A stretch of 64,000 nucleotides of DNA, taken from positions 975,385 to 1,039,384 of the forward strand of contig OZ220470.1 in assembly GCA_965115855.1 (NCBI GenBank), in the 5' to 3' direction. The first letter of the stretch is position 1. The number at the start of each line of letters is the position of its first letter. Below, piece by piece: positions 13,919-61,268 of this stretch. A model generated the notes under the pieces. It was not told where the DNA came from. It searched no databases and saw only the letters and a list, made by a program, of their open reading frames with translations. This DNA comes from Vicinamibacteria bacterium (GTDB taxonomy: Bacteria; Acidobacteriota; Vicinamibacteria; Marinacidobacterales; Marinacidobacteraceae). Made by a program: the position numbers and the translations under genes.

Positions 13919-14040
13919 GGGACCGGTTCGTCATCCCGCCAGCAACATTCCCACCGGGGCCCGATCAGTCGTCCCCCGGGGAATCCGTCGCCTCGCCCGC
14001 CGAGGGTTTCGGTTCCGCCCTTCCCCCTGCCGGGCGCCGG

Positions 14041-17334: not shown

Positions 17335-18090
17335 CTACTCCCGCAGCTTGCAACCGTCGGCAGTGCACACCGCTTCCGGATCTCCCGAACAGGCATCAGA
17401 TGTGGACCGAAAGCGGAATTCCAAATCGGGATAGCCCTTCCAACCTGTACCCCATTCAACCTCGAGGTTGTGTCGCACTCCAGTTCCTGTCGGCTCGAAA
17501 GACCAAAGTGACACATCCTGGTGCAGACGGCGTTGCCACACGTACGGACCAAGCCATTCAAGAACAACGTCCGCCGACGTCGCGTCCACTTCGAGAGTCA
17601 GCGATACCATTTCGGTGCCACCACGAATCAAGCTACGAAAGTCATTCGGTATCAGTCTTCCCGACAGAAAGACTCCTTCGCAGGGACGGACTCCCCCGTC
17701 CTCGATAACAATCCGATGAGTTTCATCACCGAAAGAAAGAAGAAGAAATTCGTTGTCTTCGGCGAACTGGGTATCCTCAACCGCATCCACCTCAAAGGTC
17801 ATCTCGCCGGAACCCGCTTCACCCACTGGAATCTTCAGGCTTTTCGTGGAAATTTTGTAGTCATCCTCGCTGACATCGCCTCCCACAGCCAACAACATTT
17901 CCATCGGATAATCCACTCGCCCGGTGACTGAATACGCGACGTTAACGAGCGCGGTATTTCCCTCCCGAACCGTTTGCTCCGCTTCCTGGAAGACCACAGC
18001 GACCAACGGCTGCGACCCGGGAGTGGGTGATACAGACGGGGAATCAGAGCCCCCACAACCGATCTCGACAAGAAGAAAAAACAACAGCAT
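17335..18090 (-). CDS. Small lipoprotein with a Calx-beta domain. Low GC (about 50%).
   Basis: Lipobox LLVEIGCGGS. Calx-beta pattern (VAVVFQEAEQTVREGNTALVNVAYSVTG..DYKISTKSLKIP..EMTFEVDAVEDTQFAEDNEFLLLSF). GC content is atypical. Confidence 0.6.
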   Translation of the reverse strand: MLLFFLLVEIGCGGSDSPSVSPTPGSQPLVAVVFQEAEQTVREGNTALVNVAYSVTGRVDYPMEMLLAVGGDVSEDDYKISTKSLKIPVGEAGSGEMTFEVDAVEDTQFAEDNEFLLLSFGDETHRIVIEDGGVRPCEGVFLSGRLIPNDFRSLIRGGTEMVSLTLEVDATSADVVLEWLGPYVWQRRLHQDVSLWSFEPTGTGVRHNLEVEWGTGWKGYPDLEFRFRSTSDACSGDPEAVCTADGCKLRE

Positions 18091-18491
18091 CGACGCATAT
18101 TTGACGCGTGCGTGGCGGAACAAGGGAATCACGGGTGCTTGAATCGATCTTTGCGTATCTCTATGGACTCGGTTTGGGTTGTCGAGCCCGCCTCCACTCG
18201 CACTGGATAGGGTAGCATTGTCTCCACGACAACCATCGGGCCCAATAAACTGCGCTGACCATAATGTGCGTTTGGCTCGGTAAGTGGAGATACCCAGAGA
18301 ACGTACGCCTCAACTCAATTTCGAGTGGGTACGGGCTGGAAGCTCGCCGGGGGGCCGGGTGTCAAGGGCGGGCGTAGCCCGGCGCAGCGAACCCTTGACG
18401 CTCGGCCCCCCGGCGGGCATGCTCGGTTCCGGGGTCGAAAAGCGGCAGAATGCTGTTTTTCGGCCCCATCCCTGCATTGGAGAAGCATCTC

Positions 18492-19295
18492 ATGACAAAC
18501 ATCCACCAGATCTTCGCAACCGCGCTTGGCCTCATCGAACCATGGTTCGTCGAAAGCGTGAAGTTTGTCGAACCTGACCGCAAGCTGATCATCCGAGTCG
18601 ACTTCCAGCGTGGCGCCCGCTTTCCTCACAAGGACCATGAAGGTACACACCCCATCCATGACACCAGGACCAAGTGCTATCGCCACCTCAACTTCTTCCA
18701 GTATAAATGTGAAGTGGTCGCAAGGGTTCCGAGGGTCCGTCTGCCCGACGGACGGGTCGCGCTGGTCACCACGCCCTGGACGGGTCAGGTCTCCGGATTC
18801 ACTGCACTCTTCGAAGCGTTGGTGATCGTCATGAGTCGGGAAATGCCCTTCGCCGCAGTCGCACGGTTGAACAAGGTTTCCCCACACCGGGTCCAAGCCA
18901 TCTGCAACCACTACGTGGAACTCGCCTCCGCTGAGGACGACCAGGGCGCCGTTCGCGCCGTCACCATCGACGAGACCTCCCGGGCCCGGGGGCACGACTA
19001 TGTCACCGTTGCCGCCGACGCCCGCAAACGCCGGGTGCTGTTTGTCGGAGAGGGCCGGGGGGCCGACACGGTCGGGCAATTCGCCCGGAATCTGGTGATG
19101 CGGGGTGGCGCCCCCGAAGCGATCCAGTTCGTCTCGATCGACATGTCCCCCGCTTTCATAAAGGGGGTTGCGAAGCATTTGCCCCATGCCCGGATCACCT
19201 TCGACAAGTTCCATGTCGTCGCCCATGCCTCGAGGGCCCTCGACGAGACCAGACGCCTCGAGCAGCGAGTGGAGCCGGGGATCAAGGGCATGCGC
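18492..19295 (+). pseudogene. ISL3-family transposase, N-terminal two thirds. It is interrupted by the IS256-family insertion.
   Basis: Zn-finger/HTH N-terminus and DDE core of ISL3 transposases. The reading frame changes to IS256 terminal sequence after ..EPGIKGMRG. Confidence 0.8.
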
Positions 19296-20781
19296 GGCCC
19301 TGTAAGAAATTTTGTGTGTTGAGTGATTTTGACTGGGTTCATGGGATCGGCGCCACTTGGCGTTCTGGGCCGGATGGAGGGAGCGGAGCGACCGGAGGCC
19401 GGACCAGAACGCGCGCCCCGGCGAGCACCCACCTTCCCCTCGCGGGAGCTTCGCAGCGCCTTCGGGGATGGCGTGTCCGTTCATCTTCCTTCCTCAGGCG
19501 GTGGGCGCAAACCGCTCGCCGAACTGGATGGCGAACTGCGCCTTGGCAGCTTGCCACACTTGGGGCGGTCTCTTCCACTTCGCCGTGATGTTGCGCAGTG
19601 CCAAGTACATCAGCTTCGTCGCCGCCTCGTCACTTGGGAAGTGCCCCTTGTTCCGGATCGCCTTCCGAAGCTGGCTGTGCAGGCTCTCGATCGCGTTCGT
19701 CGTGTAGAGAATCCGCCGCACCTCCGGTGAAAACGCCAGAAACGGGATCACCTCATCCCATCGGCGCCGCCAACTCCGCGCCACCGCACCAAAGCGCTTC
19801 CCGTACGGACCCGACTCGAAACGATCCAGTTCCACCCCGGCGGCCTCCGCCGACGGCGCCGTGTAGATCCCTTGCAGCGCCTTCGCCAGCGAACCCCGTT
19901 CCTTCCACGATGCGAACTGCAGGGAATACCGAATGAGATGAACCACGCAGGTTTGCACCACGCACGCCGGATACTCCGCCCGGATCGCCTCCGGGAACCC
20001 CCTCAAACCATCCACCACCGCGATCAGCAAGTCCTTGACACCCCGTGCCTTGAGCTCGTTCATCACCCGTAGCCAGAACTTCGCGCCCTCTGTCTGCTGG
20101 ATCCACAGCCCCAGAACCTCCTTCTGACCGTCGCAGGTGTACCCGATCGCAAGGTATGCCGCCTTGTTCCGCACAAGCCCCTCGTCCCGGATCTTCACCC
20201 GCAGCGCATCAAAGTACACCACCGCGTACGTCGCTTCCAGTGGACGGCTCTGCCACTCCGTCACCTCCTCCAAAACCCCGTCGGTGACCGCCGAGATCAG
20301 CGCCGGGGAAACCCCCATCCCGTACAACTCCTCGATGTGCGCCTGGATGTCCCGCGTGCTCATCCCCCGCGCGTACATCGCAATGATCTTCTCATCAAAC
20401 CCCGGAAGACGACGCTGGTACTTGGCCACCAGAACCGGGTCGAAGCGCCCCTGCCGATCCCGCGGGATGTCCAAAACGATCCGCTCGTCGCCCGTGTCCA
20501 CCGTCTTCCGCGACGTCCCGTTGCGGTGGTTCCCCGTCCGTCGTTCCCCCGAATCCGCCAAGTGGGCCTCCATCTCAGCCAGCAGCATCCGCTCGGCCAA
20601 GGCCTTCTTCAAGTCCCCCGCCAAGGACTCGAAACCCGCAGCCCCGGAGGCGCCCCGCATGGCGATCAGTTCATCCAGCAGCTCGCGTGAGATGCCGTCG
20701 TTGTGCTTCTTGGCCATTTCTTCGACTCCTTCCGAAAAAAGTCATGGTAGGCCTCGAACACACAAAATTCTGAACAGCCTC
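19296..20781. mobile_element. IS256-family insertion sequence (about 1.49 kb). It is flanked by an 8-bp target-site duplication GCATGCGC, at 19288-19295 and 20782-20789.
   Basis: Terminal inverted repeats are GGCCCTGTAAGAAATTTTGTGTGTT and (reverse complement) GAGGCTGTTCAGAATTTTGTGTGTT. Deleting the element and one TSD copy restores the ISL3 transposase motif IKGMRWTLLKNP. Confidence 0.85.
19494..20717 (-). CDS. IS256-family (mutator-type) transposase.
   Basis: 407 aa with IS256/Mutator hallmarks ([46 protein letters not shown]). Confidence 0.9.
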
Positions 20782-20783
20782 GC

Positions 20784-21218
20784 ATGCGCTGGACCTTGCT
20801 CAAGAATCCGGCACACCTCAGCCGCAACCAACGCTCCGCTCTCAACGCACTGATCGCACAGGCCGCGGGCAAGCGCACCACTCGATCCTGGCAGTACCGG
20901 GAGCAACTCCGGGCCATCCTCAACCGCAAACAGGTCCATGTCATGCGGGCCATGCTCCAACAGTGGTGCACCAGTGTGAATCGATCCCGGATCGAACCCA
21001 TGAAAGCCGTAGCCCGGATGATCCGAAGACACTTCGACGGCATCACCGCGTGGGCCCAAACCCGCCAGACCAACGGGTTCATCGAAGCACTCAATGGCCT
21101 CTTCCAATCCGCCAAACGGAAAGCCAGGGGCTATCGTTCCTTCCGTACCATCCGCACCGTTTTCTTTCTCATTGCCGGAAAACTCGACTTCTCCAAGCTC
21201 AACCCTTACCTCGCATAA
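20784..21218 (+). pseudogene. ISL3-family transposase, C-terminal fragment.
   Basis: MRWTLLKNPAHLSRNQ...FIEALNGLFQSAKRKARGYRSFRTIRTVFFLIAGKLDF is the conserved ISL3 C-terminus. Confidence 0.8.
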
Positions 21219-21619
21219 CCCACTCGAAATTCAAAAGAGCCCAAAAAACCGCATCGGAAACTGGTCCGGTGCGCGTTCGTTATGACCCGGTTCTCATGGA
21301 TGGTGCGGTGGCCCACCGACCGGGTCACCACCGGAACGGCGCGTTTCCGCCTGGGGTCTTCCCATCAAAAACCCTCGACTCCCTTGGGCGCAATTCCCGG
21401 CGCGTCGCAAGAATCGGATCATCTCCTTTCCCCTTCCGGGGAGGGTGACCATGCCGGACGCGGCGCCTTGATCGGTCGCGTTGCCGATCAGGGACCGTAT
21501 GTTTCGGGTGGCGCCCATCGAACCATGTGATTCTGCGTGACATTTCCGCTATGAAAGCAGCGGCGACTGTTCCTGATCGCAACAATGAGCGAGCCGGGGC
21601 GTCGGTCTTCGGGGTCGGT

Positions 21620-21913
21620 TCAGGGCCAGCGTCCGCGGGTGGACGGCTTGAGGATCTGCCCCGAGCTGTCCATCACTCCCACGGTCTTGCCCTCGGTGTA
21701 CTCCCGGGCAAGCGGGATGTCCCGGTCGTTGGCGCAGGCGATGTATACCGGCCCGCGATAGCCCCGGAGCCTTCCGGCGGCGGTGTCCATGGTGCGTGCA
21801 GTCTCAACGTTGATCGTCAGCTCACCGGTCCGGATATCGGGACCCCGGAACCGGTTGTACTTGACACCGAGGCGGGCGGCCAGCGCCCGAGCCACCTGAA
21901 CCCTGGTCGCCAC
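21620..21913 (-). CDS. Hypothetical 97-aa protein. It lies 17 nt downstream of the glycosidase-like gene and is probably co-transcribed with it.
   Basis: High GC3 codon bias consistent with genuine coding. No recognised family. Confidence 0.35.
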   Translation of the reverse strand: MATRVQVARALAARLGVKYNRFRGPDIRTGELTINVETARTMDTAAGRLRGYRGPVYIACANDRDIPLAREYTEGKTVGVMDSSGQILKPSTRGRWP

Positions 21914-21930
21914 CTTGGCCGTCCTTCCGG

Positions 21931-24921
21931 TCAGCGGGAGGCCACTCCGGCGGCCGCCATGCGTTCGAGCAGGTCGTCGAGCTGGGCGCGAAGCTCCCCG
22001 TAGCGCTCCCGGGCGTCCGCTCCGGGCGGCTGGTCGGCGGTGTCGAGGTTCCCGGCGAGATAGCGGATCTGGTCGCGGAGCATCGGCCGCGAATACCGGA
22101 TCGGGCGGGTAATGAGCTCCTCGTGCATGGCGCGGACCTCGGCATCACCGCTCCCCAGCGCCGCCTTCAGATGGGCGGCCGCCTCGTTGGCCTCGCTCAG
22201 GGCGTCCCGGGCGAGGAGGGCGAGCGCGACCTGTTCCCGGACCTGCTCGGCGGTAACCCAGCCTTCCCGAGTCACCCTCGGGTCCATCCGCAGACGGAAA
22301 TCACGGGTTGCGCGGAAGTCGCCGGCAGCAACCTCGACCGTATAGCGGCCGGGAGCCGCCAGGACACCACGGCCCGACGGGACGCCACTCTCATCCCGGG
22401 CGCCCTCGTGGCGCATGTCCCAGATAAAGCGGTGGATTCCCGCGCTGGTGGGCACGGTGGGTGTTCCCCGGGTGAAGGGTCCGGGCGCGCGCATCCCCTG
22501 CCCGGTCCCGGAGCGGGTTCCGGCCCCGTCGCTGCGGAAGCTCCGCACCACCTCGCCGGCCTCATCCCGAACCGTGATGGAGGCGTCCTCCACGTCCGCC
22601 GGCACGCGCCAGGTGAAACGGGGTCCGGGCGTCGGGTATTCGGGATCGGCCGGCGAGGCCATGCCACCGAAGCCGCCCGAAGTGCGCAAGCGGATCGCGT
22701 CGCGCACCGGAAACAGATGGGCGCCAGGCCCCGGGCTCTCGTGGAGCGGGGTCAGGTCGTCGAGGATCCAGAACCCCCGTCCCATCGTCGAGAGCACGAG
22801 GTCCTGCCGGATCACCTTGACGTCGGTGATCGGCGTCACCGGCAGGTTCTGCTGGAACGGGGCCCAGCTGGCGCCGTCGTCGAAGGAGACGAACATCCCC
22901 CACTCGCTGCCGAGATAAAGCAGCCCCTCCCGGTCCGGGTCCTCGCGCACCACCCGCACCGGATGGTCGTTCGGCACCCCGTTGGTCCCGTCGGTGATCC
23001 GGGTCCAGGTGGCGCCGTAGTCGGTGGTCTTGTACGCATGGGGGGTGAAGTCGCCGAGCTGGTAACGCAGGATCGCCGCGTAGGCCTTCGCCGGATCGTG
23101 CGGCGAGACCTCGATGTTCTGCACCCGTCCGTAGGGGCCGATCCCCGGCGGGGTCACCTCGGTCCAGCTCTGCCCACCGTCCCGGGTTACATGGATCGGC
23201 CCGTCGTTGGCGCCGGCCCACAGGACACCCTCCTCGTGGGGGGATTCCTGAACGTCGTAGAGCACCGCGAAGTGCTCCTCGCCGGTGACATCGAGCGTGA
23301 TCGGATCTCCGGAAACCACCTGGGTCTCCTCGGTGAAGGCGGTGAGATCGGGAGAGATGGTGCGCCAGGTCCTTCCGCCGTTCTCGGTCACATGCACGTA
23401 TTGTGAGGCGTGGTAGACCCGGTTCGGGTCGTGCGGCGAGACATGGATCGGAACCGTGCGCTGGAAGCGGTACCCAAGGTCCTTCGGGTTGTGCCCGTAG
23501 ATGTTCCAGAATCCGACGTAGTACTGCTCCTCCTGCCCGGTCCGGGTGTTGTAAAGGCCGAAGCGCCCCTTGCAGTTGGCGTAGACCACATCCGGGTCGC
23601 CGGGCTTCGGGACCACCGGGCCGGTCTCGCACCCACCGATCGCCTCCCAGTGCGCGGTGGGCCCGCCGGGACGGTAGTGCGACGGATAGCTCGGCACCGA
23701 GATCGTGGAGTTGTCCTGTTGTCCGGCGTAGAGCCGGTACGGGAAGTCGTCGCTCACGTCCACCTGGTACAGCTCGGCGGTGGGCTGGTTCTCCTGGGTG
23801 GACCAGGTCTCGCCGCCGTCGAGGGTGACGTTCGCGCCACCATCGTTGGCCTGGATCTGGATGTCGGGATTGTCCGGATTGATCCACAGGTCATGGTTGT
23901 CGCCATGGGGAGTGAATTTCCGCTCCCAGTTCACGCCGCCATCGGTGGACTTCCAGTAGCCCTCGGCCATCCCCCAGAGCGTGTCCGGGTCGGTCGGGTG
24001 GGCATGCAGGTTGGTGTAGTAGAAGGGCCGATTCCGGATCGGCTGGAAGTCGGTCACCTGCCGCCAGCTGTCGCCTTCGTCGTCCGAGCGATACACCCCG
24101 CCGTCGTTCCCGGGGGCCTCGATGAGCACATAGACCCGGGAGGGGTCCGCCGCCGAGACGGCGAGGTCGGACTTGCCGCGCAGGCCGGTGGGGAGCCCGT
24201 TCTCCAGCTTCTCCCAGGTCTCCCCGCCGTCCCGGGAACGGTGGACGCCGCCTTCCCTGCCCCCCGACCGAATGGTCCACGGCTTCCGTTCGGCCTCCCA
24301 GCTGGACGCATAGATGGTCTCGGGGTCGCCCGGCTTGAATTCGAGGTCCACGGCTCCGGTCTGCTCGGAAATGAAGAGCACCCGATCCCAGGAACCGCCG
24401 CCGTCGGTGGTCTTGTAGACACCGCGCTCCGGGTTGGCGATGAAGGGGTTGCCGATCGCCGCCACCCAAGCGGTGTCCGGATCCTCCGGATGGATCAGCA
24501 CCGCCCCGCTGTTTCCGGTGTTCCCGAGGCCGAGGTGCCGCCACGACTTCCCGGCATCATCGGAGCGGTACACCCCCTTGCCGATGATGACATTGCTGCG
24601 CAGGCCGTCGGATCCGGTGGAGACGTACACGATGTCGGGGTTGCTCCCGGCAACCGCGATGGCCCCGATCGACGGGCTGGCGAACGTCCCGTCGGAAACC
24701 GGATGCCAATTGTGCCCGTAGTCGGTCGTCTTGAAGACTCCACCCCCGGTCGCCCCCATATAGAAGGTTCCGGGGTGCGCGCGGTGGCCGGCGACCGCGG
24801 TCACCCGGCCGCCGCGCGAGGGACCGACATAGCGGTACCGCATGGCGTCCCGAAGGTCCGATTCCGGCTGGGCGCCCGCCGGAAGGGCGAGCAGGACAAG
24901 AAACGGCAGCAGCTTGCGCAT
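21931..24921 (-). CDS. Secreted BNR/Asp-box repeat protein of the sortilin/VPS10 (GH74-like) beta-propeller type. It is a putative glycoside hydrolase.
   Basis: Signal peptide MRKLLPFLVLLALPAGAQP. Numerous S/T-x-D-x-G-x-T/S-W Asp-box repeats (YRSDDAGKSW, YKTTDGGGSW, HRSRDGGETW, YRSDDEGDSW, WKSTDGGVNW, TLDGGETW, VTENGGRTW, VTRDGGQSW, YKTTDYGATW, VSFDDGASW). Confidence 0.7.
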   Translation of the reverse strand: MRKLLPFLVLLALPAGAQPESDLRDAMRYRYVGPSRGGRVTAVAGHRAHPGTFYMGATGGGVFKTTDYGHNWHPVSDGTFASPSIGAIAVAGSNPDIVYVSTGSDGLRSNVIIGKGVYRSDDAGKSWRHLGLGNTGNSGAVLIHPEDPDTAWVAAIGNPFIANPERGVYKTTDGGGSWDRVLFISEQTGAVDLEFKPGDPETIYASSWEAERKPWTIRSGGREGGVHRSRDGGETWEKLENGLPTGLRGKSDLAVSAADPSRVYVLIEAPGNDGGVYRSDDEGDSWRQVTDFQPIRNRPFYYTNLHAHPTDPDTLWGMAEGYWKSTDGGVNWERKFTPHGDNHDLWINPDNPDIQIQANDGGANVTLDGGETWSTQENQPTAELYQVDVSDDFPYRLYAGQQDNSTISVPSYPSHYRPGGPTAHWEAIGGCETGPVVPKPGDPDVVYANCKGRFGLYNTRTGQEEQYYVGFWNIYGHNPKDLGYRFQRTVPIHVSPHDPNRVYHASQYVHVTENGGRTWRTISPDLTAFTEETQVVSGDPITLDVTGEEHFAVLYDVQESPHEEGVLWAGANDGPIHVTRDGGQSWTEVTPPGIGPYGRVQNIEVSPHDPAKAYAAILRYQLGDFTPHAYKTTDYGATWTRITDGTNGVPNDHPVRVVREDPDREGLLYLGSEWGMFVSFDDGASWAPFQQNLPVTPITDVKVIRQDLVLSTMGRGFWILDDLTPLHESPGPGAHLFPVRDAIRLRTSGGFGGMASPADPEYPTPGPRFTWRVPADVEDASITVRDEAGEVVRSFRSDGAGTRSGTGQGMRAPGPFTRGTPTVPTSAGIHRFIWDMRHEGARDESGVPSGRGVLAAPGRYTVEVAAGDFRATRDFRLRMDPRVTREGWVTAEQVREQVALALLARDALSEANEAAAHLKAALGSGDAEVRAMHEELITRPIRYSRPMLRDQIRYLAGNLDTADQPPGADARERYGELRAQLDDLLERMAAAGVASR

Positions 24922-29513: not shown

Positions 29514-32500
29514 CTATCCGCCGCTCCCGTCGTTTTCGGCGACCGTGACCGTGACGCTGTCAATCGTCACCGAGTCATACCCGCCGCCGCTCGCCCCGTG
29601 CGTCAACACCACGGCTGGATCCGCTGTCGCGTCCTCGTCCTCGTCCGCCGAAACCGTCACCATCTGCGGCGCCCCGTAGTTCGTGCTCGTGAAGGTCAGA
29701 CTCGCCGGAACAACGCGGACGTCGCCGGAGGCCCCAGCCACTGTCACCGTCACATCACCGCCCGCAGGCCGCGAATCCAGATGCACCGTATAACTCCCGC
29801 TGCCGCCTTCGGCCACTGTCAGCGCGGAATCCGAAACCGTCACCCCGGCCGTGTCGTCATCCATGATCGTGCCAGTGGCTTCGAGCCTCTTCTTCCCGCC
29901 CTCGAAGACCACGCGCCTGTCGCTCGTACGGATGTTGTTCAGGCGCAGGGTGAACGTCTCGTCGTCCTCATCCACCTCATCGCCCAGAACCCGCACGGTC
30001 ACCATCTTGGTCAGATCTCGACCGGTAGCATTGGCCGCGAACACCAGATTCTGGTCCCGGAACCCGACAAAGTCCCGCCCAGCGCCTCGCCCCCCCTTGG
30101 CCGTGCCCGGCCGAGCCCACGCCGTCGCCCGAATCTCCACATCGTGGCTCGGGGAACCACTCAACGTAACGGTGAATTCCATGTCGGTCTCGCCCGAATC
30201 CCCCTCGTCAACGGTCACATCCGAAACCGAAATCTCATGGCCGGTCGACTTGGCGGCATCGTCATCCATGATCGTCCCGATGACTTCGAGCCTCTTCCTT
30301 CCGTTCTCGAAGGCCACTAGCGGGTCGCCCGTTCGGATGTTGTTCAAACGCAGGACAAGCGTCTCGTCGTTTTCTTCCACCTCGTCACCCAACACCTTGA
30401 CCGTCACTATTTTGGTCAGGTCCGCCCCGGTCGCATTCGCTGGAAACACCAGATTCCGATCTCGGAACCCGATGAAATCCCGACCGGCCCCTTTGCCACC
30501 CTTGGCGATATCAATGGCGTCCCTGCTCCATGCCGTCGCCCGAATCTCCACATCGTGGCTCGGCGAGTCACTCAGCGTGACCGTGAAGTCCATGTTCGTT
30601 TCGCCCGAATCCCCTTCGTCAACTGTCACATCAGACGCCGATATCAGCGGCCGAATCGGCTCCGGCTCCGGCCCCGGAACCGGCGCGCGAATCAGCACTT
30701 CCAGTGTGTCGGACACCTCACTGTAGCCGTTAGGATTCACGGCGCGGATTTGGATTCCAAGCGTTTCGCCCTGACTTAGTGTGAAATTTCGATAATCGAT
30801 ATAGCACGGGAGTTCGGTGTCAAGGTGCAAAAGATCGGACCAAGGACTCCACTGACCCTGCCAGCTACGATGTCTGATTCGACTTTGCCACTTAGTAATG
30901 CTGGAGTCCTTCGGATCATCCCAATTGACTGTAACACAATCGGGCAAATGTGCATATCCTTGAAACGCTATAAGACCCGTCGGTTTCGCTGGTACAGCAT
31001 TGCCATACTCGATTACCGACACCACAACAGAGTCAATCGTTATCGAGTCATAGCCACCTCCGCTGGCGCTATGCGTCAGCGTCACATCGGGATCCGTAGT
31101 GGTGTCCATGTCGTATTTCGCGAAAACCGTCACAACTTGTTCGGTGGTCCAATTCCCCCGCGTAAAGGTGAGTGATGATTTATCTACTGTCACATCCCCT
31201 GATTCACCACCCACGGTGATCGTCACGGTCCCTGACGGCGCTTGATTCAATTTTATCGTGTAGCTTTCGCTCCCACCCTCGCGCACCGTCAATTCGGACT
31301 CCGAGACCGTCACTCCCGCGGGAGTCGCTCGCGGCGTCGCCATCACTACAACAGAAGGTTCGCTAAATCCATTGGCGTTCACTGCGCGTACTTGATATTT
31401 ATAAGAAGTTCCAGGAGGACCTCCTCTCTCGTTCCAATATGTCTTGAATTGACCTGATGTTTCCACATATATCTCGGACCACTCATCGCATAATTCAAAT
31501 ATCTCATTGAAACACGCTAAGTCATCCCTTTTCTCCCAACGAATAATACTGGAATCCATGGGGTCATCCCAAGTCAGAACGATTCGTCTGCCGTGTACTG
31601 AGGCCTGAACGCCGGTCGGCTTGGCCGGCACAGCGCTCACTATATCGGAGACCGGGCCGCGCCCATTGGCATTTACTGCCCGCACTTGGAATTCGTAATA
31701 TTCTACATTTTGGAGGTCATGACTGTTGATGATCAATATATCTATCTTGCCGCTACTTCGTTGCCAAGACTCCCAATCCGACCCTTGAATTCTGAGCCGA
31801 TACTCCATAGCAACAATGTTCGAATTGTCCATAGAATCATACTTCAATCTGATATGCCATCCCATTATGGTTGCCGTTAGACGTGTTGGCTTTGCCGGCA
31901 CTCCTCCAGATGACTCCATGGGGACCGCAGTCACAACATCGGAAGCCAAACCGGCACCGTGAATATTCACCGCACGTACTTGAAATACGTAGACAATTCC
32001 GTTCGTCAGATCAATAACCGTGTGATTGCCATGGGAACCGGATTCGCGGATGTCCTTCCATCTCTTGTTTGCCAAACCCTCTTCCTGTGGCGCACTCCGC
32101 ACTTGCCATCCAACGATATTGGCATCGAATAAACCCTCGCCGATGATCGGGCCACTCCAGAACAAACCAACGCGCGAATCACCGGCTTCCGCCGTAAAAT
32201 GCAACGGCTTGCCAGGAGTCGGCGTCCGTGTAGGCACTGCCGAGACTACGTCCGACGCCGGACCAACACCGTAAATGTTCCTGGCACGCACTTGAAATAC
32301 ATAGCTTGTTCCGTTCGTCAGGCCGGTAACGTTGTAGTTGCTGGGAGCGTAATCGGTACGATCAAAATTCAAATCTTGCCAGCTTTTGCTTGTCACGCCT
32401 TCCGCTTGAGACGCCATCCGAATCTGCCACGTTGCATCTCTTTCTCTTAAAATGGGGTTCCAGGTCAACACTACCGAACCATCACGTGGCGCGGCGGTAA

Positions 32501-33755
32501 ATCCTGTCGGCTTGGACGGTGGCTTTCCTTCTGACAGAAATGGCGTGGCGGCAACAACATCCGAGGCCACGCCCGCACCGTTGGCGTTCACAGCGCGTAC
32601 CTGAAAAACAAGCAGCATACCGACTTCCCTACTGAAATCGTAGGGGGCTGTGCCGTAAGATGTTATATCGGACCTGACATTCCACCATTCCTGAGAACTC
32701 AAATTTTCGTTCTCCTGAAATGCCCACCTCATCTGCCATCCGGTTATGCTGGGATCCTTTGGGTCGTCCCAAGTCACCACTATAGTTCCACCCCGGCTGG
32801 CGGTAACAGCGACGCCCTTCGGCTTGCCAGGAGTTGGCGCAAGCATCGGGGTCACGATCACTTCGTCCGAAGCGGCACTTGAAGTATTACCTTTCATCGC
32901 CCGAATTTTGAATCCGTATGCCGTACCGTTCGCCAAGTTGGTTATCGTGTGACTGGACGTGGATGCACTCGATCCCGCAATGTCGGTCCAATCGCCGTAA
33001 TTGCTGTTTCCGGACTTCATTTGATACTGCCAACCAGTGATGCTGGCATTTACCGATTCGTCCCAGTTCAGGGTTGTCTGTCGATCTCCTGCGACGGCGA
33101 CGAGACCCATAGGAGCGCCGGGAGCGCCGTCGTCGTCGACGATAGTCAAGGTGATGGTTCCGGCGGTCCACATCGTGGCTTGGACCGAGTTGTTCGGAAT
33201 GGCCTTGAATGTGAGAGTCTCGTCACGTTCGTCTTCCGCGTCACCGAGGACACTGAATTGGAACGTGGCAGTCCTTTCGCCGCTGCTGATCGTGGCAACA
33301 GCGCCATTGGGCCAACACATGTCGGCACCCGAGGGAGCCGGACTGCTGCAGCCACTGGCGGTCATGGTCTCGTTGAATGTTCCCGTGCTCTCAGCAGCAA
33401 CTGGTTCCATCTTGACATCAAAACTGCCGTCTGCCGCGTCGCCAAGCATTACGGTGATGGCGATATCGGTCCTTTCCGAGTCCCCCTCCGTGAACGACGT
33501 TATCCCAGATGAAAGCGTGATGATCTTGCCCGCGATACCCTGAGCCGCGATGGCGACCGGCCCGTCGGGAGATGCTCCCGGTGCAGAAGGAGTGGCCGGA
33601 GCGGGAGTGACACGAGGCGATGACGGCGTAGTGGGATTGGAAGACCCGCAACCGCTCACTCCGAGCAGGACGGCGATGCCAAGCGCAATTCCTACATAGC
33701 CAAGATGCCGATCAAATCGAACGCAAGCGCTAACGGGAGTAGTATGGATTTTCAT
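29514..33755 (-). CDS. Giant surface lipoprotein (about 1413 aa, paralog B). It has a Calx-beta-like N-terminal domain, at least 8 fibronectin type III domains, two Calx-beta domains and a conserved C-terminal beta-domain. Its central third has only about 50% GC.
   Basis: Start at MKIHTTPVSA with lipobox LLGVSGCGSS. Repeated FN3 signatures (W..R.......W......YxFQVRAVN). Calx-beta motifs (VTVDEGDSGETxMxFTVTLS..DETLVLRLNNIRT). N- and C-terminal blocks are near-identical in architecture to the 15258..17171 protein. Confidence 0.8.
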   Translation of the reverse strand: MKIHTTPVSACVRFDRHLGYVGIALGIAVLLGVSGCGSSNPTTPSSPRVTPAPATPSAPGASPDGPVAIAAQGIAGKIITLSSGITSFTEGDSERTDIAITVMLGDAADGSFDVKMEPVAAESTGTFNETMTASGCSSPAPSGADMCWPNGAVATISSGERTATFQFSVLGDAEDERDETLTFKAIPNNSVQATMWTAGTITLTIVDDDGAPGAPMGLVAVAGDRQTTLNWDESVNASITGWQYQMKSGNSNYGDWTDIAGSSASTSSHTITNLANGTAYGFKIRAMKGNTSSAASDEVIVTPMLAPTPGKPKGVAVTASRGGTIVVTWDDPKDPSITGWQMRWAFQENENLSSQEWWNVRSDITSYGTAPYDFSREVGMLLVFQVRAVNANGAGVASDVVAATPFLSEGKPPSKPTGFTAAPRDGSVVLTWNPILRERDATWQIRMASQAEGVTSKSWQDLNFDRTDYAPSNYNVTGLTNGTSYVFQVRARNIYGVGPASDVVSAVPTRTPTPGKPLHFTAEAGDSRVGLFWSGPIIGEGLFDANIVGWQVRSAPQEEGLANKRWKDIRESGSHGNHTVIDLTNGIVYVFQVRAVNIHGAGLASDVVTAVPMESSGGVPAKPTRLTATIMGWHIRLKYDSMDNSNIVAMEYRLRIQGSDWESWQRSSGKIDILIINSHDLQNVEYYEFQVRAVNANGRGPVSDIVSAVPAKPTGVQASVHGRRIVLTWDDPMDSSIIRWEKRDDLACFNEIFELCDEWSEIYVETSGQFKTYWNERGGPPGTSYKYQVRAVNANGFSEPSVVVMATPRATPAGVTVSESELTVREGGSESYTIKLNQAPSGTVTITVGGESGDVTVDKSSLTFTRGNWTTEQVVTVFAKYDMDTTTDPDVTLTHSASGGGYDSITIDSVVVSVIEYGNAVPAKPTGLIAFQGYAHLPDCVTVNWDDPKDSSITKWQSRIRHRSWQGQWSPWSDLLHLDTELPCYIDYRNFTLSQGETLGIQIRAVNPNGYSEVSDTLEVLIRAPVPGPEPEPIRPLISASDVTVDEGDSGETNMDFTVTLSDSPSHDVEIRATAWSRDAIDIAKGGKGAGRDFIGFRDRNLVFPANATGADLTKIVTVKVLGDEVEENDETLVLRLNNIRTGDPLVAFENGRKRLEVIGTIMDDDAAKSTGHEISVSDVTVDEGDSGETDMEFTVTLSGSPSHDVEIRATAWARPGTAKGGRGAGRDFVGFRDQNLVFAANATGRDLTKMVTVRVLGDEVDEDDETFTLRLNNIRTSDRRVVFEGGKKRLEATGTIMDDDTAGVTVSDSALTVAEGGSGSYTVHLDSRPAGGDVTVTVAGASGDVRVVPASLTFTSTNYGAPQMVTVSADEDEDATADPAVVLTHGASGGGYDSVTIDSVTVTVAENDGSGG

Positions 33756-34295
33756 AGATAGAGATGGCCTTTCGGGCGGAACTTCGGGAGGAGAGTGCAG
33801 TATCGGCGAGTGGATTCCGGCGATAAAACCAAGGAATTCCAACGCATTGAGTGTAGTCACCCAGAATGTCAGTTCTGACATTAATCGCATCATTTTTCGG
33901 CGCACGCGCTGCGAACAAAAGGTGACAACCGCTCGATTGGTGGATCGGCGCAGTGGTCGCGCCTGGTCCACGCAGGCGCCAGTGATCGCGGTGTTCACCG
34001 ATTCCGACTTTTCGGTTATCCCAAGTACGACGAACCGTGATCTCCGGAAACTCGGCGCCCGGACGGTCGAGGGGGGCACTACCGGATCGGTTCGACCGAA
34101 CGAGCTCGATTCATGGCTTGCGGACGCGGGCGAAAGCCCCGGTTCCCCCGGGCCGAACACTCTGCTCTTCGGGCGGCGCGGTAGCGGCGATGCGACCTCA
34201 ACTACCGCGGTCCGTCGTTGGGGGTCGCGGAGAGCGCCACCCCAGGGACGGCGGCGCGCTAGCTAACGGTTACCGCTTCCGCTTGGTGTGATAAT

Positions 34296-36586: not shown

Positions 36587-37732
36587 TTGACCGCCGAATC
36601 CCCCCATCTGTTTCCGGTCTACGCCCAGCTCCCGGTCCGCATCGCCCGGGGAGACGGCGTGACCCTCACCACCGACACCGGCCGGACCCTGCTGGACTTC
36701 TACGGCGGACACGCGGTTGCCGGTCTCGGATACGGACACCCGGCGGTGCTGGCCGCGCTCCGGGAGTCGGCGGAACAACTCCTCTTCCAGACCAATGCAG
36801 TCCCGAGCGCCCGCCGGGCGGCGGCGGCGGCGGCGCTGGCCGGATTCGCTCCGGACGGACTCGACCGGGTCTTCTTCGTGAACAGCGGCGCCGAAGCCAA
36901 CGAGAACGCCCTCCGACTGGCGTTCCGAAAGCGCCCCGAACGCGACACGGTGGTGGTCGCAAGCGGCGGGTTCCACGGACGCACGGCGGCAGCCGCTGCC
37001 GCCACCGCCGGTTCGGAGCGATGGTACGGGTTCCCGCGGACGCCCTTCGAGACGCGAACGGTGGCGCGCGACGATCCGGGCGCGCTCGCCGAAGCGGTGG
37101 ACGAGCGGGTCGCCGCGGTGCTGCTGGAGCCGGTGCAGGGGATGGCGGGCGCCATCGTGCTCGGCCACGATTTCCTCCGGACGGCGCGCGAGGCATGCGA
37201 CCGGACCGGAGCGCTGCTGATCTTCGACGAGGTGCAGTGCGGCATGGGCCGGAGCGGCAAGCCCTTCGCGTGCGACTGGCCGGGAGTGCGGCCCGACCTG
37301 CTGACGACCGCCAAGGCGGTCGCCGCCGGGTTTCCTGCGGGAGCGGTGCTTGCCACCGAAGCGGTGGCCGGCAACCTTCCGGTGGGGGCGCTCGGCACCA
37401 CGTTCGGAGGAGGCCCGGTCGCCGCGGCGCTGGTGGTCGCGGTGATCGAGACCATCCTGCGCGAACGGCTGCTCCCCGAAGTGGTGCGGCTTTCCGAGCG
37501 GATCCGCGCCGAAGCTCCCGGCGGGGTGGTGGAAGCGGTCCAGGGTCGAGGATTCCTGTTGGGCCTCCGGTGCTCCCGCCCGGCGCGCGAGGTGCGGGAT
37601 TGGCTGCTCGAGCGGGGCATTCTCGCCGGAACCTCGACCGACCCCGCAGTCCTGCGGCTGCTTCCCCCGCTGGTGCTGCGCGACGAACATGTGGACCGAC
37701 TGCTGACCGAACTTCGGGAGATCGAGCGGTGA
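36587..37732 (+). CDS. argD: Acetylornithine aminotransferase (class III PLP).
   Basis: Class-III aminotransferase motifs (FDEVQCGMGRSGKPFA, TTAKAVAAGFP). Non-ATG start as given in the ORF track. Confidence 0.9.
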   Translation: MTAESPHLFPVYAQLPVRIARGDGVTLTTDTGRTLLDFYGGHAVAGLGYGHPAVLAALRESAEQLLFQTNAVPSARRAAAAAALAGFAPDGLDRVFFVNSGAEANENALRLAFRKRPERDTVVVASGGFHGRTAAAAAATAGSERWYGFPRTPFETRTVARDDPGALAEAVDERVAAVLLEPVQGMAGAIVLGHDFLRTAREACDRTGALLIFDEVQCGMGRSGKPFACDWPGVRPDLLTTAKAVAAGFPAGAVLATEAVAGNLPVGALGTTFGGGPVAAALVVAVIETILRERLLPEVVRLSERIRAEAPGGVVEAVQGRGFLLGLRCSRPAREVRDWLLERGILAGTSTDPAVLRLLPPLVLRDEHVDRLLTELREIER

Positions 37733-38771
37733 GTGGTCCGGAAATCCAGCGGACGGGGGATCGGGGCGCCGATGCGTCCCGGCACGGCGCGGGCCCTGCC
37801 CTCCGGCTGCCGATCACGCACCGCAACCGGAACTGCTGGCCGGGCTCTGGGGGATCGCAGCGCATCGTCCCCGAATCCATCGGCCGGGAGGCCCGGGTAC
37901 CGACGGATCCCGTCGCAGCGCGGCCCTTGCCCCCTGGCCGCCGATCACGCGACACGGCCGGCGCTGCCGCGCGGGCTTCAAGAGATCGCGCGGTGAGGCG
38001 TCCCGAAATCCATCAGCTGCAAGACCGGGGCACCGACGGATCCCGGTACGGTGTGGCCCTTCCCCTCCGGCTACCGATCACGCAGCGCGAACGGAACGGC
38101 CGCCCGGCTTCGGGGGATCGGACAGGGCAGGCTCCCGAATTCACCGGCCAGAGGACGGGAGCACCAACAATTCCCGATACAGCGCGGCCTTCCCGCCGGC
38201 ACCCGATCACGCAGTGCGAACGAACGGCCGCCCGGGCTTTGGAGGATCGGACGGGACAGACTCCCCGAATCCGCCAGCGGGCAACCGGCGCCGACGAACC
38301 CGGGTACGGCGCGGCCCTTCCTCTCCGCTACCGATCACACAGCGCGAACGGAACGGCCACCCGGACTTCGGAGGATCGGACGGGACAGACTCCCCGAGTC
38401 CGCCAGCGGGCAACCGGCGCCGACGAACCCGGGTACGGCGCGGCCCTTCCTCTGCGCTACCAATCACACAACGCGAACGGAACGGCCACCCGGACTTCGG
38501 AGGATCGGACGGGACAGACTCCCCGAGTCCGCCAGCGGGCAACCGGCGCCGACGAATCCGGGTACGGCGCGGCCCTTCCTCTCCGCTACCGATCACACAG
38601 CGCGAACGGAACGGCCGCCCGGGCTTCGGGGGATCGGACGGGGCAGACTCCCAAATCCACCGGCCGGAGGACGGGAGCGCCCACAGACCCCGGTACAGCG
38701 CGGCCCTCCCCAACGGCTGCCGATCGCACGGCAAGACCAGCGCTGCCGCGCGGGCTTCGGGAGGTCGGGCG
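37733..38771. repeat. Tandem array of about 8.5 degenerate copies of a 120-125 bp unit. It fills the entire argD-argF' intergenic space. Both terminal copies run into the gene ends.
   Basis: The recurring core is CGATCACACAGCGCGAACGGAACGGCCRCCCGGRCTTCGGRGGATCGGACGGGACAGACTCCCCGAGTCCGCCAGCGGGCAACCGGCGCCGACGAAYCCGGGTACGGCGCGGCCCTTCCTCTCCGCTAC. The first and second copies contain GAGATCGMGCGGTGAGKSGTCCSGAAATCCA. This resembles both the argD stop junction and the argF' GTG start region. Confidence 0.85.
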
Positions 38772-39800
38772 GTGAGGCTTTCCGAAATCCACCAGTTGGA
38801 GGACCTCGGCGCCGACGGGCTCGGCCGGATCGCCTCCCTCGCCCGCCGATTGCGGGAACGACCCGAACCGGATGCCCTGCGCGGGCGGGTGCTGGGCCTG
38901 CTGCTGCTGAACCCGTCGCTCCGGACCCAGGCGTCGTTCCAGGCGGCCATGGCCCGGCTCGGCGGCGCGAGCTTCGTCATCGCCCCCGACCGGTTCATCC
39001 ACCACCTCGAGTTGGACCCCGACGCGATCATGGATGGTGAAGCCGCCGAGAACATCGCCGAGGCGATTCCGGTGCTCGCCAGCTATGTCGACGTCCTCGG
39101 CGTCCGGGCGTTCGGCCGACAACGAAGCCTCGCGGAGGATATGGACGATCCGGTCATCGAGCGCATCCGTGCGCTGACCGGCAAGCCGTTCCTGAACCTG
39201 GAGTCGGCGATGCGGCATCCCTGCCAAGCGATCTCGGACTGGCTCTCGCTGGATGACTTCGGGGTGCGGCCGGGCGCGAAGTTCACGCTGGCGTGGGCGA
39301 ACCATCCGGCCCCCCTGCCCCTCGCGGTGCCGGCGGACACCCTGCGGATGGCCACGATGCGCGGGATGCGGGTGACGGTGCTTCGCCCCCGAGGGTACGC
39401 CCTGCCGCCGGCGGTGATGGAGGAGGCGCGGGCCCTTGCAGCCGCGGCCGGCGGATCGCTTCGGGAAACCGAAGACATCAACGAAGGCATGGACAGAGCG
39501 CGGGTTCTCTACGCGAAGTCCTGGGCTTCAACCGTCCACTACGGGGATCAGAAGGCGGATATCGGTATCCGGCGAATGCTTGGTGACTGGACGGTGGACG
39601 ATCCCTGGTTCGAGGGAGCGGATCCCGCCTGCGACTTCCTTCACTGCCTGCCGGTCCGACGGGGCGTGGTCGCCACCCGGAAGGTTCTGGAAGGCCCCCG
39701 GTCCCGGATCGTGCGCCAGGCGGAAAACCGGATGTGGGCCCAGATGGCGATCCTCCACCGCCTGCTGGCCCGAACCTCGAGCGGAGGGCCGACGGGATGA
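38772..39800 (+). CDS. Ornithine-type carbamoyltransferase. It is likely the N-acetyl/N-succinyl-ornithine carbamoyltransferase type (ArgF').
   Basis: It has the carbamoyltransferase fold with SLRTQ where canonical STRTR occurs. There is a C-terminal HCLP motif. The GTG start is read off the last repeat copy. Its stop overlaps the argB start. Confidence 0.75.
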   Translation: MRLSEIHQLEDLGADGLGRIASLARRLRERPEPDALRGRVLGLLLLNPSLRTQASFQAAMARLGGASFVIAPDRFIHHLELDPDAIMDGEAAENIAEAIPVLASYVDVLGVRAFGRQRSLAEDMDDPVIERIRALTGKPFLNLESAMRHPCQAISDWLSLDDFGVRPGAKFTLAWANHPAPLPLAVPADTLRMATMRGMRVTVLRPRGYALPPAVMEEARALAAAAGGSLRETEDINEGMDRARVLYAKSWASTVHYGDQKADIGIRRMLGDWTVDDPWFEGADPACDFLHCLPVRRGVVATRKVLEGPRSRIVRQAENRMWAQMAILHRLLARTSSGGPTG

Positions 39801-40750
39801 TCGAACGGCTCACCGCCGAAGAACGCGCCACCCGGGTGCGCGCGCTCAAGCATGCGGCGCCCTACCTGAAGCGCTACCGGGGGCGGACCCTGCTCATCAA
39901 GGCCGGGGGCGCCACCCTCGAGAGCGACCGGGGCATCGCCGGCATCGTGGAGCAGATCGCCCTGCTCCACCGGCTGGGTATCCACATCGTCTTCGTCCAC
40001 GGCGGTGGTCCCCAGGGCACCGAACTCGCTCGCGCACTCGGGCGGGAAACCCGGTTCGTCGCCGGGCGGCGGGTCACCGACGCCGACGGGATCCGGGTGA
40101 TGGCGATGGCCATGAACGGCGCGATCAACACCCGGATCCTTGCCGCCTGTCGGGCCTGGGACCTTCCCGCGGTCGGGTTTTCCGGGGTCTCCGCCGGGCT
40201 GATCGAAGCGCACCGGCGGCCGCCGGTCGAGGTGGACGGAACGACGGTGGACTACGGGCTGGTCGGCGACATCCACCGGGTGCGGGCGGAAGTGCTCGCC
40301 GAACAACTCCGCCTGGGAGTCATTCCGGTGATCAGCCCGCTGTCCGCCGACGATGCCGGCCAGCTGCTGAACATCAACGCCGACACGGTGGCGGCCGCCC
40401 TGGCCGCGGCGATCAAGGCCGAAAAACTGATCCTGCTCGGCGAGACCCCGGGGCTGCTCGGCGATCCGGATGACCCCGGAAGCGTCATCTCCTTCCTGGA
40501 TATCGAGGAGCTGGGCCGGATGACCGGATCCGGGGCGATCCGCAGCGGGATGCTCCCGAAGGCCCGCTGCATCCGGGAGGCGCTCGGCGGCGGAGTCGCC
40601 CGGGCGCATCTGATTCCGCTGGGCGTTCCCGACAGCCTGCTCCTCGAGATCTTCACCCCGGAGGGGATCGGCACGCTGGTGGTGCCGAAACTGGATGACC
40701 TGTCGTCCGCCGAGCGGGCGCGGCGCATGAGCGGCGCCGGGGGAAACTGA
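39797..40750 (+). CDS. argB: Acetylglutamate kinase.
   Basis: AAK-family motifs (LIKAGGA, VFVHGGGPQ, NINADTVAAALA). Typical length (317 aa). Confidence 0.9.
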   Translation: MIERLTAEERATRVRALKHAAPYLKRYRGRTLLIKAGGATLESDRGIAGIVEQIALLHRLGIHIVFVHGGGPQGTELARALGRETRFVAGRRVTDADGIRVMAMAMNGAINTRILAACRAWDLPAVGFSGVSAGLIEAHRRPPVEVDGTTVDYGLVGDIHRVRAEVLAEQLRLGVIPVISPLSADDAGQLLNINADTVAAALAAAIKAEKLILLGETPGLLGDPDDPGSVISFLDIEELGRMTGSGAIRSGMLPKARCIREALGGGVARAHLIPLGVPDSLLLEIFTPEGIGTLVVPKLDDLSSAERARRMSGAGGN

Positions 40751-41440
40751 TCAGCGCCCCGGAGCGGACGCAACCCGACGCCGGCACCGGGGGAAACACC
40801 CGAATCGCACGCCGGAAGGACCCGGAAATGGCGCCGGGGGAACCGATCAGCGCCCCGGAGCGGACGCAACCCGACGCCGGCACCGGGGGAAACACCCGAA
40901 TCGCACGCCGGAGGGACCCCGCAACGGCGCCGGGAAAACCGATCAGCGCCCCGGAGCGGACGCAACCCGGCGCCGGCACCGGGGGAAACACCCGAATCGC
41001 ACGCCGGAGGGACCCCGCAACGGCGCCGGGAAAACCGATCAGCGCCCCGGAGCGGACGCAACCCGACGCCGGCACCGGGGGAAACACCCGAATCGCACGC
41101 CGGAGGGACCCCGCAACGGCGCCGGGAAAACCGATCAGCGCCCCGGAGCGGACGCAACCCGGCGCCGGCACCGGGCGAACCACCCGAATCGCACGCCGGA
41201 GGGACCCCGCAACGGCGCCGGGAAAACCGATCAGCGCCCCGGAGCGGACGCAACCCGACGCCGGCACCGGGGGAAACACCCGAATCGCACGCCGGAGGGA
41301 CCCCGCAACGGCGCCGGGAAAACCGATCAGCGCCCCGGAGCGGACGCAACCCGACGCCAGCAACGGGGGAACCACCCGAATCGCCCGCCGGAGGGACCCC
41401 GCAACGGCGCCGGGGGGACCGATCAGCGCCCGCCGAACCG
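40730..41440. repeat. Tandem array of 7 copies of a 96-bp unit, with partial copies at both ends. Each unit carries the palindromic stop-stop junction motif GGCGCCGGGRRAACYGATCAGCGCC.
   Basis: The GATCAGCGCC motif recurs at exact 96-bp spacing, 8 times. The first copy encodes the argB C-terminus and stop (..GGN TGA). The last copy encodes the C-terminus and stop of the convergent minus-strand phosphatase-like gene. Confidence 0.85.
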
Positions 41441-60211: not shown

Positions 60212-61202
60212 CGCGCGGCCATCCGCGACCGGCTGGTAGGACCAGCTGTCCAGCCAGACCAGCACCGTCCGGAGCGGATGGCGTGGCGACCTGGCCCTCG
60301 CGGGCGCTACCGGCACGCGAACGCCCGCCACGATCCGACCAGGGGAAAAGGAGTCATGGGCGCGGGACGGTACAACGGCCGGGCTTCCGAAGCGAGCGGC
60401 GCGAACCGGAACTGCCGTCCGGCCGCCGCCGGGATCCCCTGCCAGCGTTCGCGCCGGGACGCGGACGTCCCTACGGCGGCAACCCCCCGGGGTGGCGTCA
60501 CCTCGTCGGAGACCGGGCCGCGGCCACTGCGAAATTCCCCGCCCGGATGTTGAAGGTGCAGAGCACGCCGTTGGTCGGTCGGCGCGCCGTGGTGGTCGGC
60601 GCGATCCTGCGGTTGCGACTCGGGGCGCCGTCGCTCGCCGCCGGATCGTCCGTCAGGCAGGACGCTGGACGGCGGGGACAGGATTCCCGCGCCGGGTGGC
60701 CGGCTCCCCGAGATGGGGAAGAGTCCGGTCCGCTGGCCTGGTGGACCGAACCAGGCCAGCCACGGATCCGGCGGAGGACCGGGAACGTCTTCGGTCAGGG
60801 CCCGGACCAGGACCGAAAGCGGAACGCCGCCCCGGCCTGATTCCGGACGGGCGTTTTCGAAGGGTTGTCGATCACCTCCCATGCTTCGTCACTCCAGGTC
60901 TCGTCGGGACTCCCGGTCCCGGCCTCGGTGCTCGTTGCCTCCCCGACACACTCTCGGGATCAGGCGACAAGCGCGGCGTCGGGACACTCCGGCGGATTCT
61001 TCGATCTTCCGGGGCGGCTCATGGAGTGTCCGCCGCCTTTCGAACCCGCGCCCCGGCCGCTGCGATACGAGACCGGAGACCAGAACGCGAAGGGGCGCCG
61101 TCATCGCCAAATCCGGAAGCCTCCGTTCGTTCCGTTGATCGGACCGTTCCCCGGGTCGTGGGTGGTGGAGGCTCCTGAACCCTCGATGCGCCACCGGCCG
61201 CT

Positions 61203-61268
61203 GACGACAACATCGCCCGTATTGACGACAACATCGTCCGTATTGACGACAACATCGTCCGTATACAG
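61203..61268. repeat. Three tandem direct repeats of about 21 bp (GACGACAACATCGYCCGTATT) in a 1.3-kb gene-free region.
   Basis: Direct reading. It lies downstream of the threonine dehydratase gene and about 0.9 kb upstream of the desaturase gene. Confidence 0.5.

Follow-up and report, generated by a model that had tools for sequence, protein, structure and literature searches.

A 96-bp tandem array between the convergent ends of argB and a phosphatase-like gene, probably a minisatellite born at a compact gene junction

How does the space between two genes that end facing each other come to be filled by a whole number of repeats, with the stop codons of both genes lying exactly in phase with them? 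The question is raised by a stretch of 64,000 nucleotides (the window) from an uncultured Acidobacteria-like bacterium, in which argB, the gene that closes the cluster argR-argC-argD-argF-argB, converges on a gene for a secreted phosphatase-like protein, and where the space from one stop codon to the other is 672 bp, that is 7 x 96 bp exactly. The initial annotation described this space as a 96-bp tandem array of seven units amplified from the original stop-stop junction, with both gene ends being partial repeat units. As to the host, the GroEL of the window finds its closest named matches in Vicinamibacteria, a class of Acidobacteriota, at 82% identity, and argB has its best match in the GTDB species representatives at 63%, in a MAG from Vicinamibacteria. 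The argB product is 100% identical to protein P0001 and the GroEL to protein P0140, the nearest argB to that of the window is about 90% identical (the cluster of P0001 and P0121), and the collections hold no conspecific assembly.

The features of the locus are collected in the table below. The stop codon of argB is the TGA at 40748-40750, and the 3' end of the gene reads ...GGGGGAAACTGA up to 40750. On the opposite strand the stop codon of the phosphatase-like gene is seen as TCA at 41423-41425, followed by GCGCCCGCCGAA, and the start of this gene overlaps the stop of a gamma-glutamyltranspeptidase gene by 4 nt. Its product matches the Pfam families BLH_phosphatase, Tc-R-P and PTP-NADK with E = 1e-4 to 1e-5, below the gathering score, and the same families, which are of DSP-PTPase type, are also recorded for its orthologues.

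Features of the argB/phosphatase junction and of the nearby argD/argF junction, in window coordinates
Feature	Coordinates	Strand	Description or basis
Sister array between argD and argF	37694..38865	+	about 9 units of 128-133 bp; TRF, repeat search, MAFFT with the L006 and L001 junctions
argB (acetylglutamate kinase)	39797..40750	+	Pfam AA_kinase E = 2e-42; named homologues; synteny
Segment c, last 18 nt of argB	40733..40750	+	GGCGCCGGGGGAAACTGA, encodes GAGGN*; corresponds to the 3' portion of a unit
Seven complete 96-bp units	40751..41422	.	starts 40751, 40847, 40943, 41039, 41135, 41231, 41327
Second half of the first unit	40780..40829	.	degenerate older copy of the first half, in every unit; local alignment
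Segment a, last 9 nt of the phosphatase-like gene	41423..41431	-	TCAGCGCCC on the + strand, Gly-Arg-stop on the - strand; equals the start of the repeat unit
Convergent secreted DSP-PTPase-like gene, 175 aa	41423..41950	-	weak Pfam hits and orthologue families

The strict periodicity claimed for the array is confirmed by TRF, which reports it at 40732-41431 with a period of 96, 7.3 copies, 95% matches, 0% indels and a score of 1258. The core GATCAGCGCC stands at 40749, 40845, 40941, 41037, 41133, 41229, 41325 and 41421, the spacing always being 96 bp, and for this core the assertion of eight copies in exact phase is borne out. The longer 25-nt motif put forward by the initial annotation gives 7 matches at <=1 mismatch where 0 are expected (100 shuffles); its eighth copy, which is the first one in the array, bears a 1-nt insertion (GGGGGAAACTGA vs GGGGG-AACCGA). 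The units run head to tail with no spacers, as seen both by TRF and in an in-register listing, and this structure, with units of roughly 10-100+ bp, is the one by which a minisatellite or VNTR is recognised. The claim that the palindrome TGATCA recurs in the units fails, as TGATCA occurs once only, at 40748, and the other seven copies read CGATCA. Nor do the two stop codons overlap in TGATCA as had been stated, since the real stops are now 672 bp apart and would abut only in the inferred ancestor. Each unit contains one GATC.

The layout of the array can be written as c-(a b c)x7-a, where c stands for the 18 nt that end argB, a for the 9 nt that end the phosphatase-like gene, and b for a stretch of 70 nt. 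Each of the two genes thus does end in part of a unit, over 18 nt in argB and over 9 nt in the phosphatase-like gene, and these roughly 27 nt derived from gene ends are joined directly in the unit with the argB end first. The copy of c within argB differs from the internal units by the 1-nt insertion and a C>T substitution. Moreover, the second half of the unit begins GCCGGCACCGGGGGAAAC, a 14/15 match to the argB end, and inside b the stretch GGCACCGGGGGAAAC is identical to GGCGCCGGGGGAAAC at 14/15 positions, while the score of c plus a against b is reached by 0 of about 19,000 random segments of the window. In the first unit the two halves (about 47 and 50 nt) align at a score of 15, compared with a null of 7.7 +/- 1.7, and only 0.06% of random 50-mers of the window reach 15; this first-unit test with an empirical null replaced an earlier one on the consensus with harsh gap penalties, which had been marginal (36/500). 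Since the halves align significantly, and since a weak 43-bp period is also reported by TRF, the 96-bp unit is in turn a dimer, built from an older one of some 48 nt.

The rest of the unit is less readily traced. When the 70 nt of b were compared with candidate sources, the observed score was reached by 88/1000 shuffles for the argB 3' region, 323/1000 for the phosphatase 3' region, and 587/1000 and 788/1000 for the L001 and L006 junctions of related genomes described below. Two segments of b, called d and about 20 nt each, make up some 40 nt per unit with no significant match to the gene ends or to the orthologous junctions, and anchored tests of d against the 22-30 nt adjoining the array were also non-significant (empirical p = 0.24-0.98). 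Over the whole unit, collinearity with the ancestral junction is traceable for the 27 nt and the degenerate second copy of the argB end, and the remaining 40 nt or so are without a match. The view that the intergenic space is an amplified junction therefore stands for the former part and is left without a traceable source for the latter. An unexpanded abutting junction was sought in metagenomes, where the single match, inside an unrelated dehydrogenase-like ORF, was a chance one. The sharp border between conserved junction pieces and untraceable sequence is unlike the uniform neutral decay of a simple junction-spanning duplication, and it is the main loose end of the reading given below.

The units differ from one another in an orderly way. 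In register, their pairwise identity is 87-96 of 96 positions (91-100%); units 2, 4 and 6 are identical to one another, A28G is common to units 3 and 5, and divergence is greatest in the two edge units, which depart from the consensus at 6 and 7 positions. In addition, the argB-like GGGGG is kept in both edge units, and the central units have GGGAAAA. Such a pattern is as would be expected of mid-array growth together with homogenisation, the latest steps probably comprising two units (192 bp) at a time, and the suggestion of recent expansion or homogenisation made in the initial annotation fits it well.

The comparison of orthologous loci that had been proposed was made with five relatives from the same clade, each with 10-kb flanks, namely L006, L001, L005, L087 and L088, whose argB genes are identical to that of the window at levels of at least 90%, 81%, 80%, 66% and 65%, respectively. 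All five share the gene order argR-argC-argD-argF-argB facing phosphatase-GGT, then two M16 peptidase genes, and in none of them is the 96-bp unit found at the argB/phosphatase junction. From the argB stop to the phosphatase stop the distance is -35 bp in L001 and -20 bp in L087, where the genes overlap, and +22 bp in L088, where a short spacer lies between them; it is +1251 bp in L006, owing to an unrelated insert with two uncalled small ORFs that contain 21-bp repeats, and +5691 bp in L005, owing to two inserted genes. Because the genes overlap or nearly abut in three relatives and the array is present in none, a compact tail-to-tail junction is likely to be ancestral, and because those three junctions are compact the 672-bp array is derived. 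Judged by these loci, the array is a derived, lineage-specific expansion, and the argB/phosphatase junction is a hotspot for change.

The gene ends themselves point in the same direction. In L006, the closest relative, which has no array, argB ends in GGCGCC, 9 nt and TGA at the same position, the protein ending in SGAATP* as compared with SGAGGN* in the window, and in a third lineage the end is SGAEGG*. Since L006 keeps the same argB end without having the array, segment c belonged to argB from the first and passed by copying into the repeat, and not the reverse. The phosphatase genes of the relatives end in ...RFGG* or ...RFGS*, with TCA NNN CCC on the + strand, and that of the window ends in ...RFGGR*, with TCA GCG CCC, which is one Arg codon more than in the relatives. 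By this comparison segment a sits on the ancestral end of the phosphatase gene, plus one extra codon, and both flanking genes stop at their ancestral positions.

Further light comes from a sister array of the same operon, about 2 kb upstream of the 96-bp array and between argD (36587-37732) and argF (GTG start at 38772). TRF reports it as 129 bp at 38033-38729, and a repeat search extends it to its true span given in the table. In L001 and L006, argD and argF overlap in GTGA, and the MAFFT alignment shows that every sister unit is a degenerate copy collinear with the argD end, the GTGA and the argF start, with local scores against the L006 junction of 20-74 as compared with a null of 12.8 +/- 3.0 and a maximum of 26. 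The real argD end lies in the first unit and the real argF start in the last, and an ORF of 349 codons runs through the array from GTG at 37729 to TGA at 38775, so that its start overlaps the argD stop and its stop overlaps the argF start. With this collinearity, a junction-spanning tandem duplication is fully demonstrated for the sister array. A duplication of this kind leaves one intact copy of each gene, and it can therefore be tolerated in a compact genome; by the same logic it can be understood that the 96-bp array has its borders at gene ends. The sister array, as read from its alignment, shows the junction-amplification route operating in the same operon.

Putting these observations together, we consider it probable that the 96-bp array is a neutral, lineage-specific, non-coding minisatellite, which was seeded at a compact convergent junction and grew stepwise by slippage or unequal recombination with its borders pinned by the gene ends. 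In the scheme that we propose, a short duplication that took in the two abutting gene ends, approximately 27 nt, and some 20 nt of filler would first have given a unit of about 48 nt; this step is a conjecture, because some 40 nt per unit are untraceable. The copies of about 48 nt may then have diverged, after which the 96-bp dimer was amplified, and the latest growth would have proceeded in 192-bp steps, to judge from the identity of units 2, 4 and 6 and from the variant common to units 3 and 5. The growth is likely to have come about through replication slippage or else through unequal recombination among the units, by which the centre would be homogenised and the edges would lag behind. The array borders presumably fall on the gene ends because a variant survives only if its first partial unit still completes argB and its last one the phosphatase gene. 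A further point against the neutral minisatellite is that the array is strikingly poor in T on the + strand (15/672, 2.2%).

The array has probably no function of its own, as argued from the absence of signals in it. It gave no match in Rfam at the gathering threshold or at E <= 1, a fold of two units was no better than shuffles (z = -1.19 on the + strand and z = +0.43 on the - strand), and no promoter-like or terminator-like sites were seen in it. These results bear on the idea that the array is a functional cis element, serving as a spacer or roadblock between convergent transcripts or as a protein-binding array on the GATCAGCGCC core. Such a role is unlikely, though there is something to be said for it: the 27 nt derived from the junction are better conserved between flank and unit than the rest, each unit offers a GATC, and in three relatives, with their overlapping or almost touching genes, the transcripts must collide, which a 672-bp spacer would relieve. 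However, those same three relatives manage with a compact junction and none of the five has the array, TGATCA is not conserved in the units, and the near-identity of the units reflects recent amplification and is uninformative on constraint. As for the TGATCA-recognising factor for which a search had been proposed, nothing points to one. That the array codes for a repeat protein or extends a flanking protein is hardly credible, even though five of the six frames are open across it, with ORFs of 210, 272 and 408 aa, and 96 is a multiple of 3. Open frames are to be expected in T-poor DNA with 75% G+C, and GC over codon positions is flat in every frame of the array (0.69-0.80), whereas it is about 0.74/0.50/0.87 in the neighbouring genes. 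Moreover, the translation of the + strand ORF has no homologue, the - strand ORF, tried as a protein, has only weak low-complexity matches of repeat against repeat at 21-60% identity, and the preserved stop positions of both flanking genes speak against an extension.

It could also be supposed that a dispersed and possibly mobile family of the MIRU, REP or MITE kind was inserted at the junction and then multiplied. With its 96 bp the unit falls in the size range of MIRUs, whose ends overlap those of neighbouring genes (PMC3184786, PMC12548453), about 40 nt of the unit lack a local source, and the window holds three large intergenic arrays. Still, we regard this origin as quite improbable. The units of the three arrays are unrelated to one another, and the sister array derives from its own junction. 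Other copies of the 96-bp unit were found neither in the window nor in 90 loci, where the longest chance matches were 16 nt, a 23-mer of the unit was absent from the GTDB genomes, JGI metagenomes and IMG/VR collections, and blastn of the array against plasmid and phage collections gave no match. Part of the unit is, moreover, ancestral sequence of the flanking genes, the duplication at its flanks would measure 27 nt as compared with 4 nt for MIRUs, and there is no stem-loop and there are no meaningful terminal inverted repeats, the only inverted pairs being 18-nt arms, 78% complementary and both with GGCGCC. Finally, it is very improbable that the array or its copy number is an artefact of assembly: the units carry distinct and orderly substitutions with differing edges, both stop codons fall exactly in phase with the array, a second and independent array of like nature is found 2 kb away, and 700 bp is far below the length of long reads. 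The argB of the window lies, besides, on a 3.02-Mb contig, and the relatives' circular contigs are named in the style of a long-read assembler, as we gather from the names.

Compared with known systems, the array of the proposed minisatellite behaves as an ordinary bacterial minisatellite or VNTR, and no new mechanism is revealed by it. It has in common with these the head-to-tail, non-coding intergenic units of tens of bp with high identity and divergent edges, the presence in one lineage and absence from relatives, and a growth presumably by slippage or unequal recombination. It differs in that VNTRs owe their name to copy-number polymorphism, whereas the array is known here from one assembly, and in that its part-origin from two flanking gene ends, which is not in the definition, can be read directly. 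With a junction-spanning tandem duplication it shares the intact state of both genes and the gene-end sequence inside the unit; a simple duplication of contiguous ancestral sequence, however, leaves the 40 nt or so unexplained, and likewise the order of argB end, phosphatase end and untraced sequence. A CRISPR array also has regularly spaced identical short motifs, and a duplicated segment of about 27 nt flanks inserted sequence, but here all 96 bp recur from unit to unit, the duplicated segment forms no palindrome and Rfam gave no CRISPR-DR match; with no unique spacers between the repeats, that reading was rejected. A resemblance of GGGAAAACCG to the ends of type I-E CRISPR repeats was also set aside, for the palindromic stem is missing. 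From REP, BIME and MITE elements the unit is set apart by having neither a palindromic stem-loop nor terminal inverted repeats.

MIRUs deserve a separate comparison. They are described, after Supply et al. 1997, as one family at about 40-50 loci, whose 40-100-bp units stand in tandem in the spaces between genes, which is thought to transpose in with 4-nt direct repeats between co-oriented genes of operons, and whose unit ORF overlaps the stop and start codons of the neighbours (PMC3184786, PMC12548453). The 96-bp array is like them in unit size, in its tandem arrangement between genes and in ends that overlap those of the neighbouring genes, and the sister array is like them in that its ORF overlaps the argD stop and the argF start. 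The differences are that the 96-bp unit is at one locus as far as the window, the 90 loci and the collections go, and is partly local gene-end sequence; that the genes on its two sides are convergent and the host is Acidobacteria-like, not Mycobacterium; and that array and flank share 18 + 9 nt of gene ends, not 4-nt direct repeats.

A further reading would go beyond the ordinary minisatellite. It supposes that a site-biased process is active in this lineage, by which tandem arrays are seeded exactly at the termini of genes, at stop/stop as well as stop/start junctions, the arrays being tolerated or kept for the preservation of gene ends and, within operons, as relays of translational coupling; template switching, or the repair of staggered breaks where translation or transcription ends, would be a candidate for it. 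We hold this to be speculative and rather unlikely. If it were true, an outcome like that of MIRUs would arise de novo from local sequence and not by transposition, and its footprint would be the three large intergenic arrays in 64 kb, when about 1 Mb of comparable loci has next to none. In fact, the arg loci of 84 other genomes, 923 kb in all, contain one array of comparable score, and the 105 kb from the five clade relatives also contain one, which lies inside an fn3 gene.

The array thus provides a clear worked example of how a minisatellite may be born at a compact gene junction with borders that coincide with gene ends, and the two arrays of one arginine-biosynthesis operon represent successive stages of the same route. 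Should the whole genome prove to be full of junction-seeded arrays, this would suggest either a mutational process peculiar to the lineage or a relaxation of selection in an Acidobacteria-like bacterium that lives with a host, and would at the same time provide a route to MIRU-like structures other than transposition. On the practical side, the array is an annotation hazard because so many of its frames are open from end to end, and the locus is a potential marker for strain typing.

Large intergenic tandem arrays occur three times in the 64 kb of the window, against a single array with a TRF score of at least 300 in the 84 GTDB arg loci used for comparison (923 kb), and against one in the five clade relatives (L001, L005, L006, L087 and L088; 105 kb), which is coding and lies within an fn3 gene. 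The source genome may have an unusual tendency to minisatellite growth.

The 96-bp array at the argB/phosphatase junction (40751-41422) is extremely asymmetric in its base composition: its + strand carries 15 T against 155 A in 672 nt, and owing to this scarcity of T there is no stop codon in any + frame. The array between argD and argF is likewise T-poor (7-14% T per unit), and each of its units repeats the argD-end/GTGA/argF-start junction in degenerate form. Across this array runs a 349-codon ORF, from GTG at 37729 to TGA at 38775, which begins on the argD stop and finishes on the argF start; since it overlaps both of them, it could relay translational coupling from argD to argF, the chance of a coincidental frame match being roughly 1 in 3. 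Such a relay has been proposed for MIRUs (mycobacterial interspersed repetitive units), and the 349-codon ORF is the candidate for it here. As for the 16-bp array, it sits in a 905-bp gap between the convergent genes of an S9 peptidase (4951-6906, +) and lipA (7812-8720, -), and inspection by eye revealed no connection with either gene end.

Judging from the sequences compared, the argB/phosphatase junction is a recurrent insertion site in the clade. In L006, the closest relative, it holds a 1.25-kb insert with two uncalled ORFs, in both of which 21-bp tandem repeats code for a repeated 7-aa motif, AEQS(K/E)AW, while in L005 two genes are inserted there. Within the window itself, the fn3/Calx-beta ORF is likely to be a foreign insertion, because the regional GC is only 0.54-0.56 and the same place is occupied in L005 and L006 by DUF2911/DUF420 genes adjoining argR. 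Another island of lower GC (0.62), at 16000-22000, contains two transposase features.

Features of the window and of the argB/phosphatase junction in two relatives
Feature	Position	Strand	Remarks
16-bp x 41.5 array	7074-7737		unit GCGGCGGCACTCCGCA; 89% matches
ISL3 transposase fragment	18399-19322	+	in 16000-22000 island
IS256/Mutator-family transposase	19494-20741	-	in 16000-22000 island
fn3/Calx-beta ORF	29514-34160	-	1548 aa
argD|argF array	37694-38865		~9 units of 128-133 bp
21-bp x 3 repeat	61202-61264		unit TGACGACAACATCGTCCGTAT; exact phase; 97% matches; intergenic region of ~1 kb
L006 insert	10958-12208		
L006 ORF	11063-11608	-	signal peptide
L006 ORF	about 11655-12190	-	signal peptide
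L005 insert	10970-16660		
L005 gene 1	within insert		88-aa protein
L005 gene 2	within insert		1627-aa fn3/Big_12 protein; internal 312-bp x 2 repeat

The tRNA-Arg(CCG) predicted by ARAGORN at 9618-9692, within a long ORF (8717-11203, -), is probably a false positive, since the Rfam search did not report it. The short 21-bp repeat may represent an operator or a site of the iteron type.
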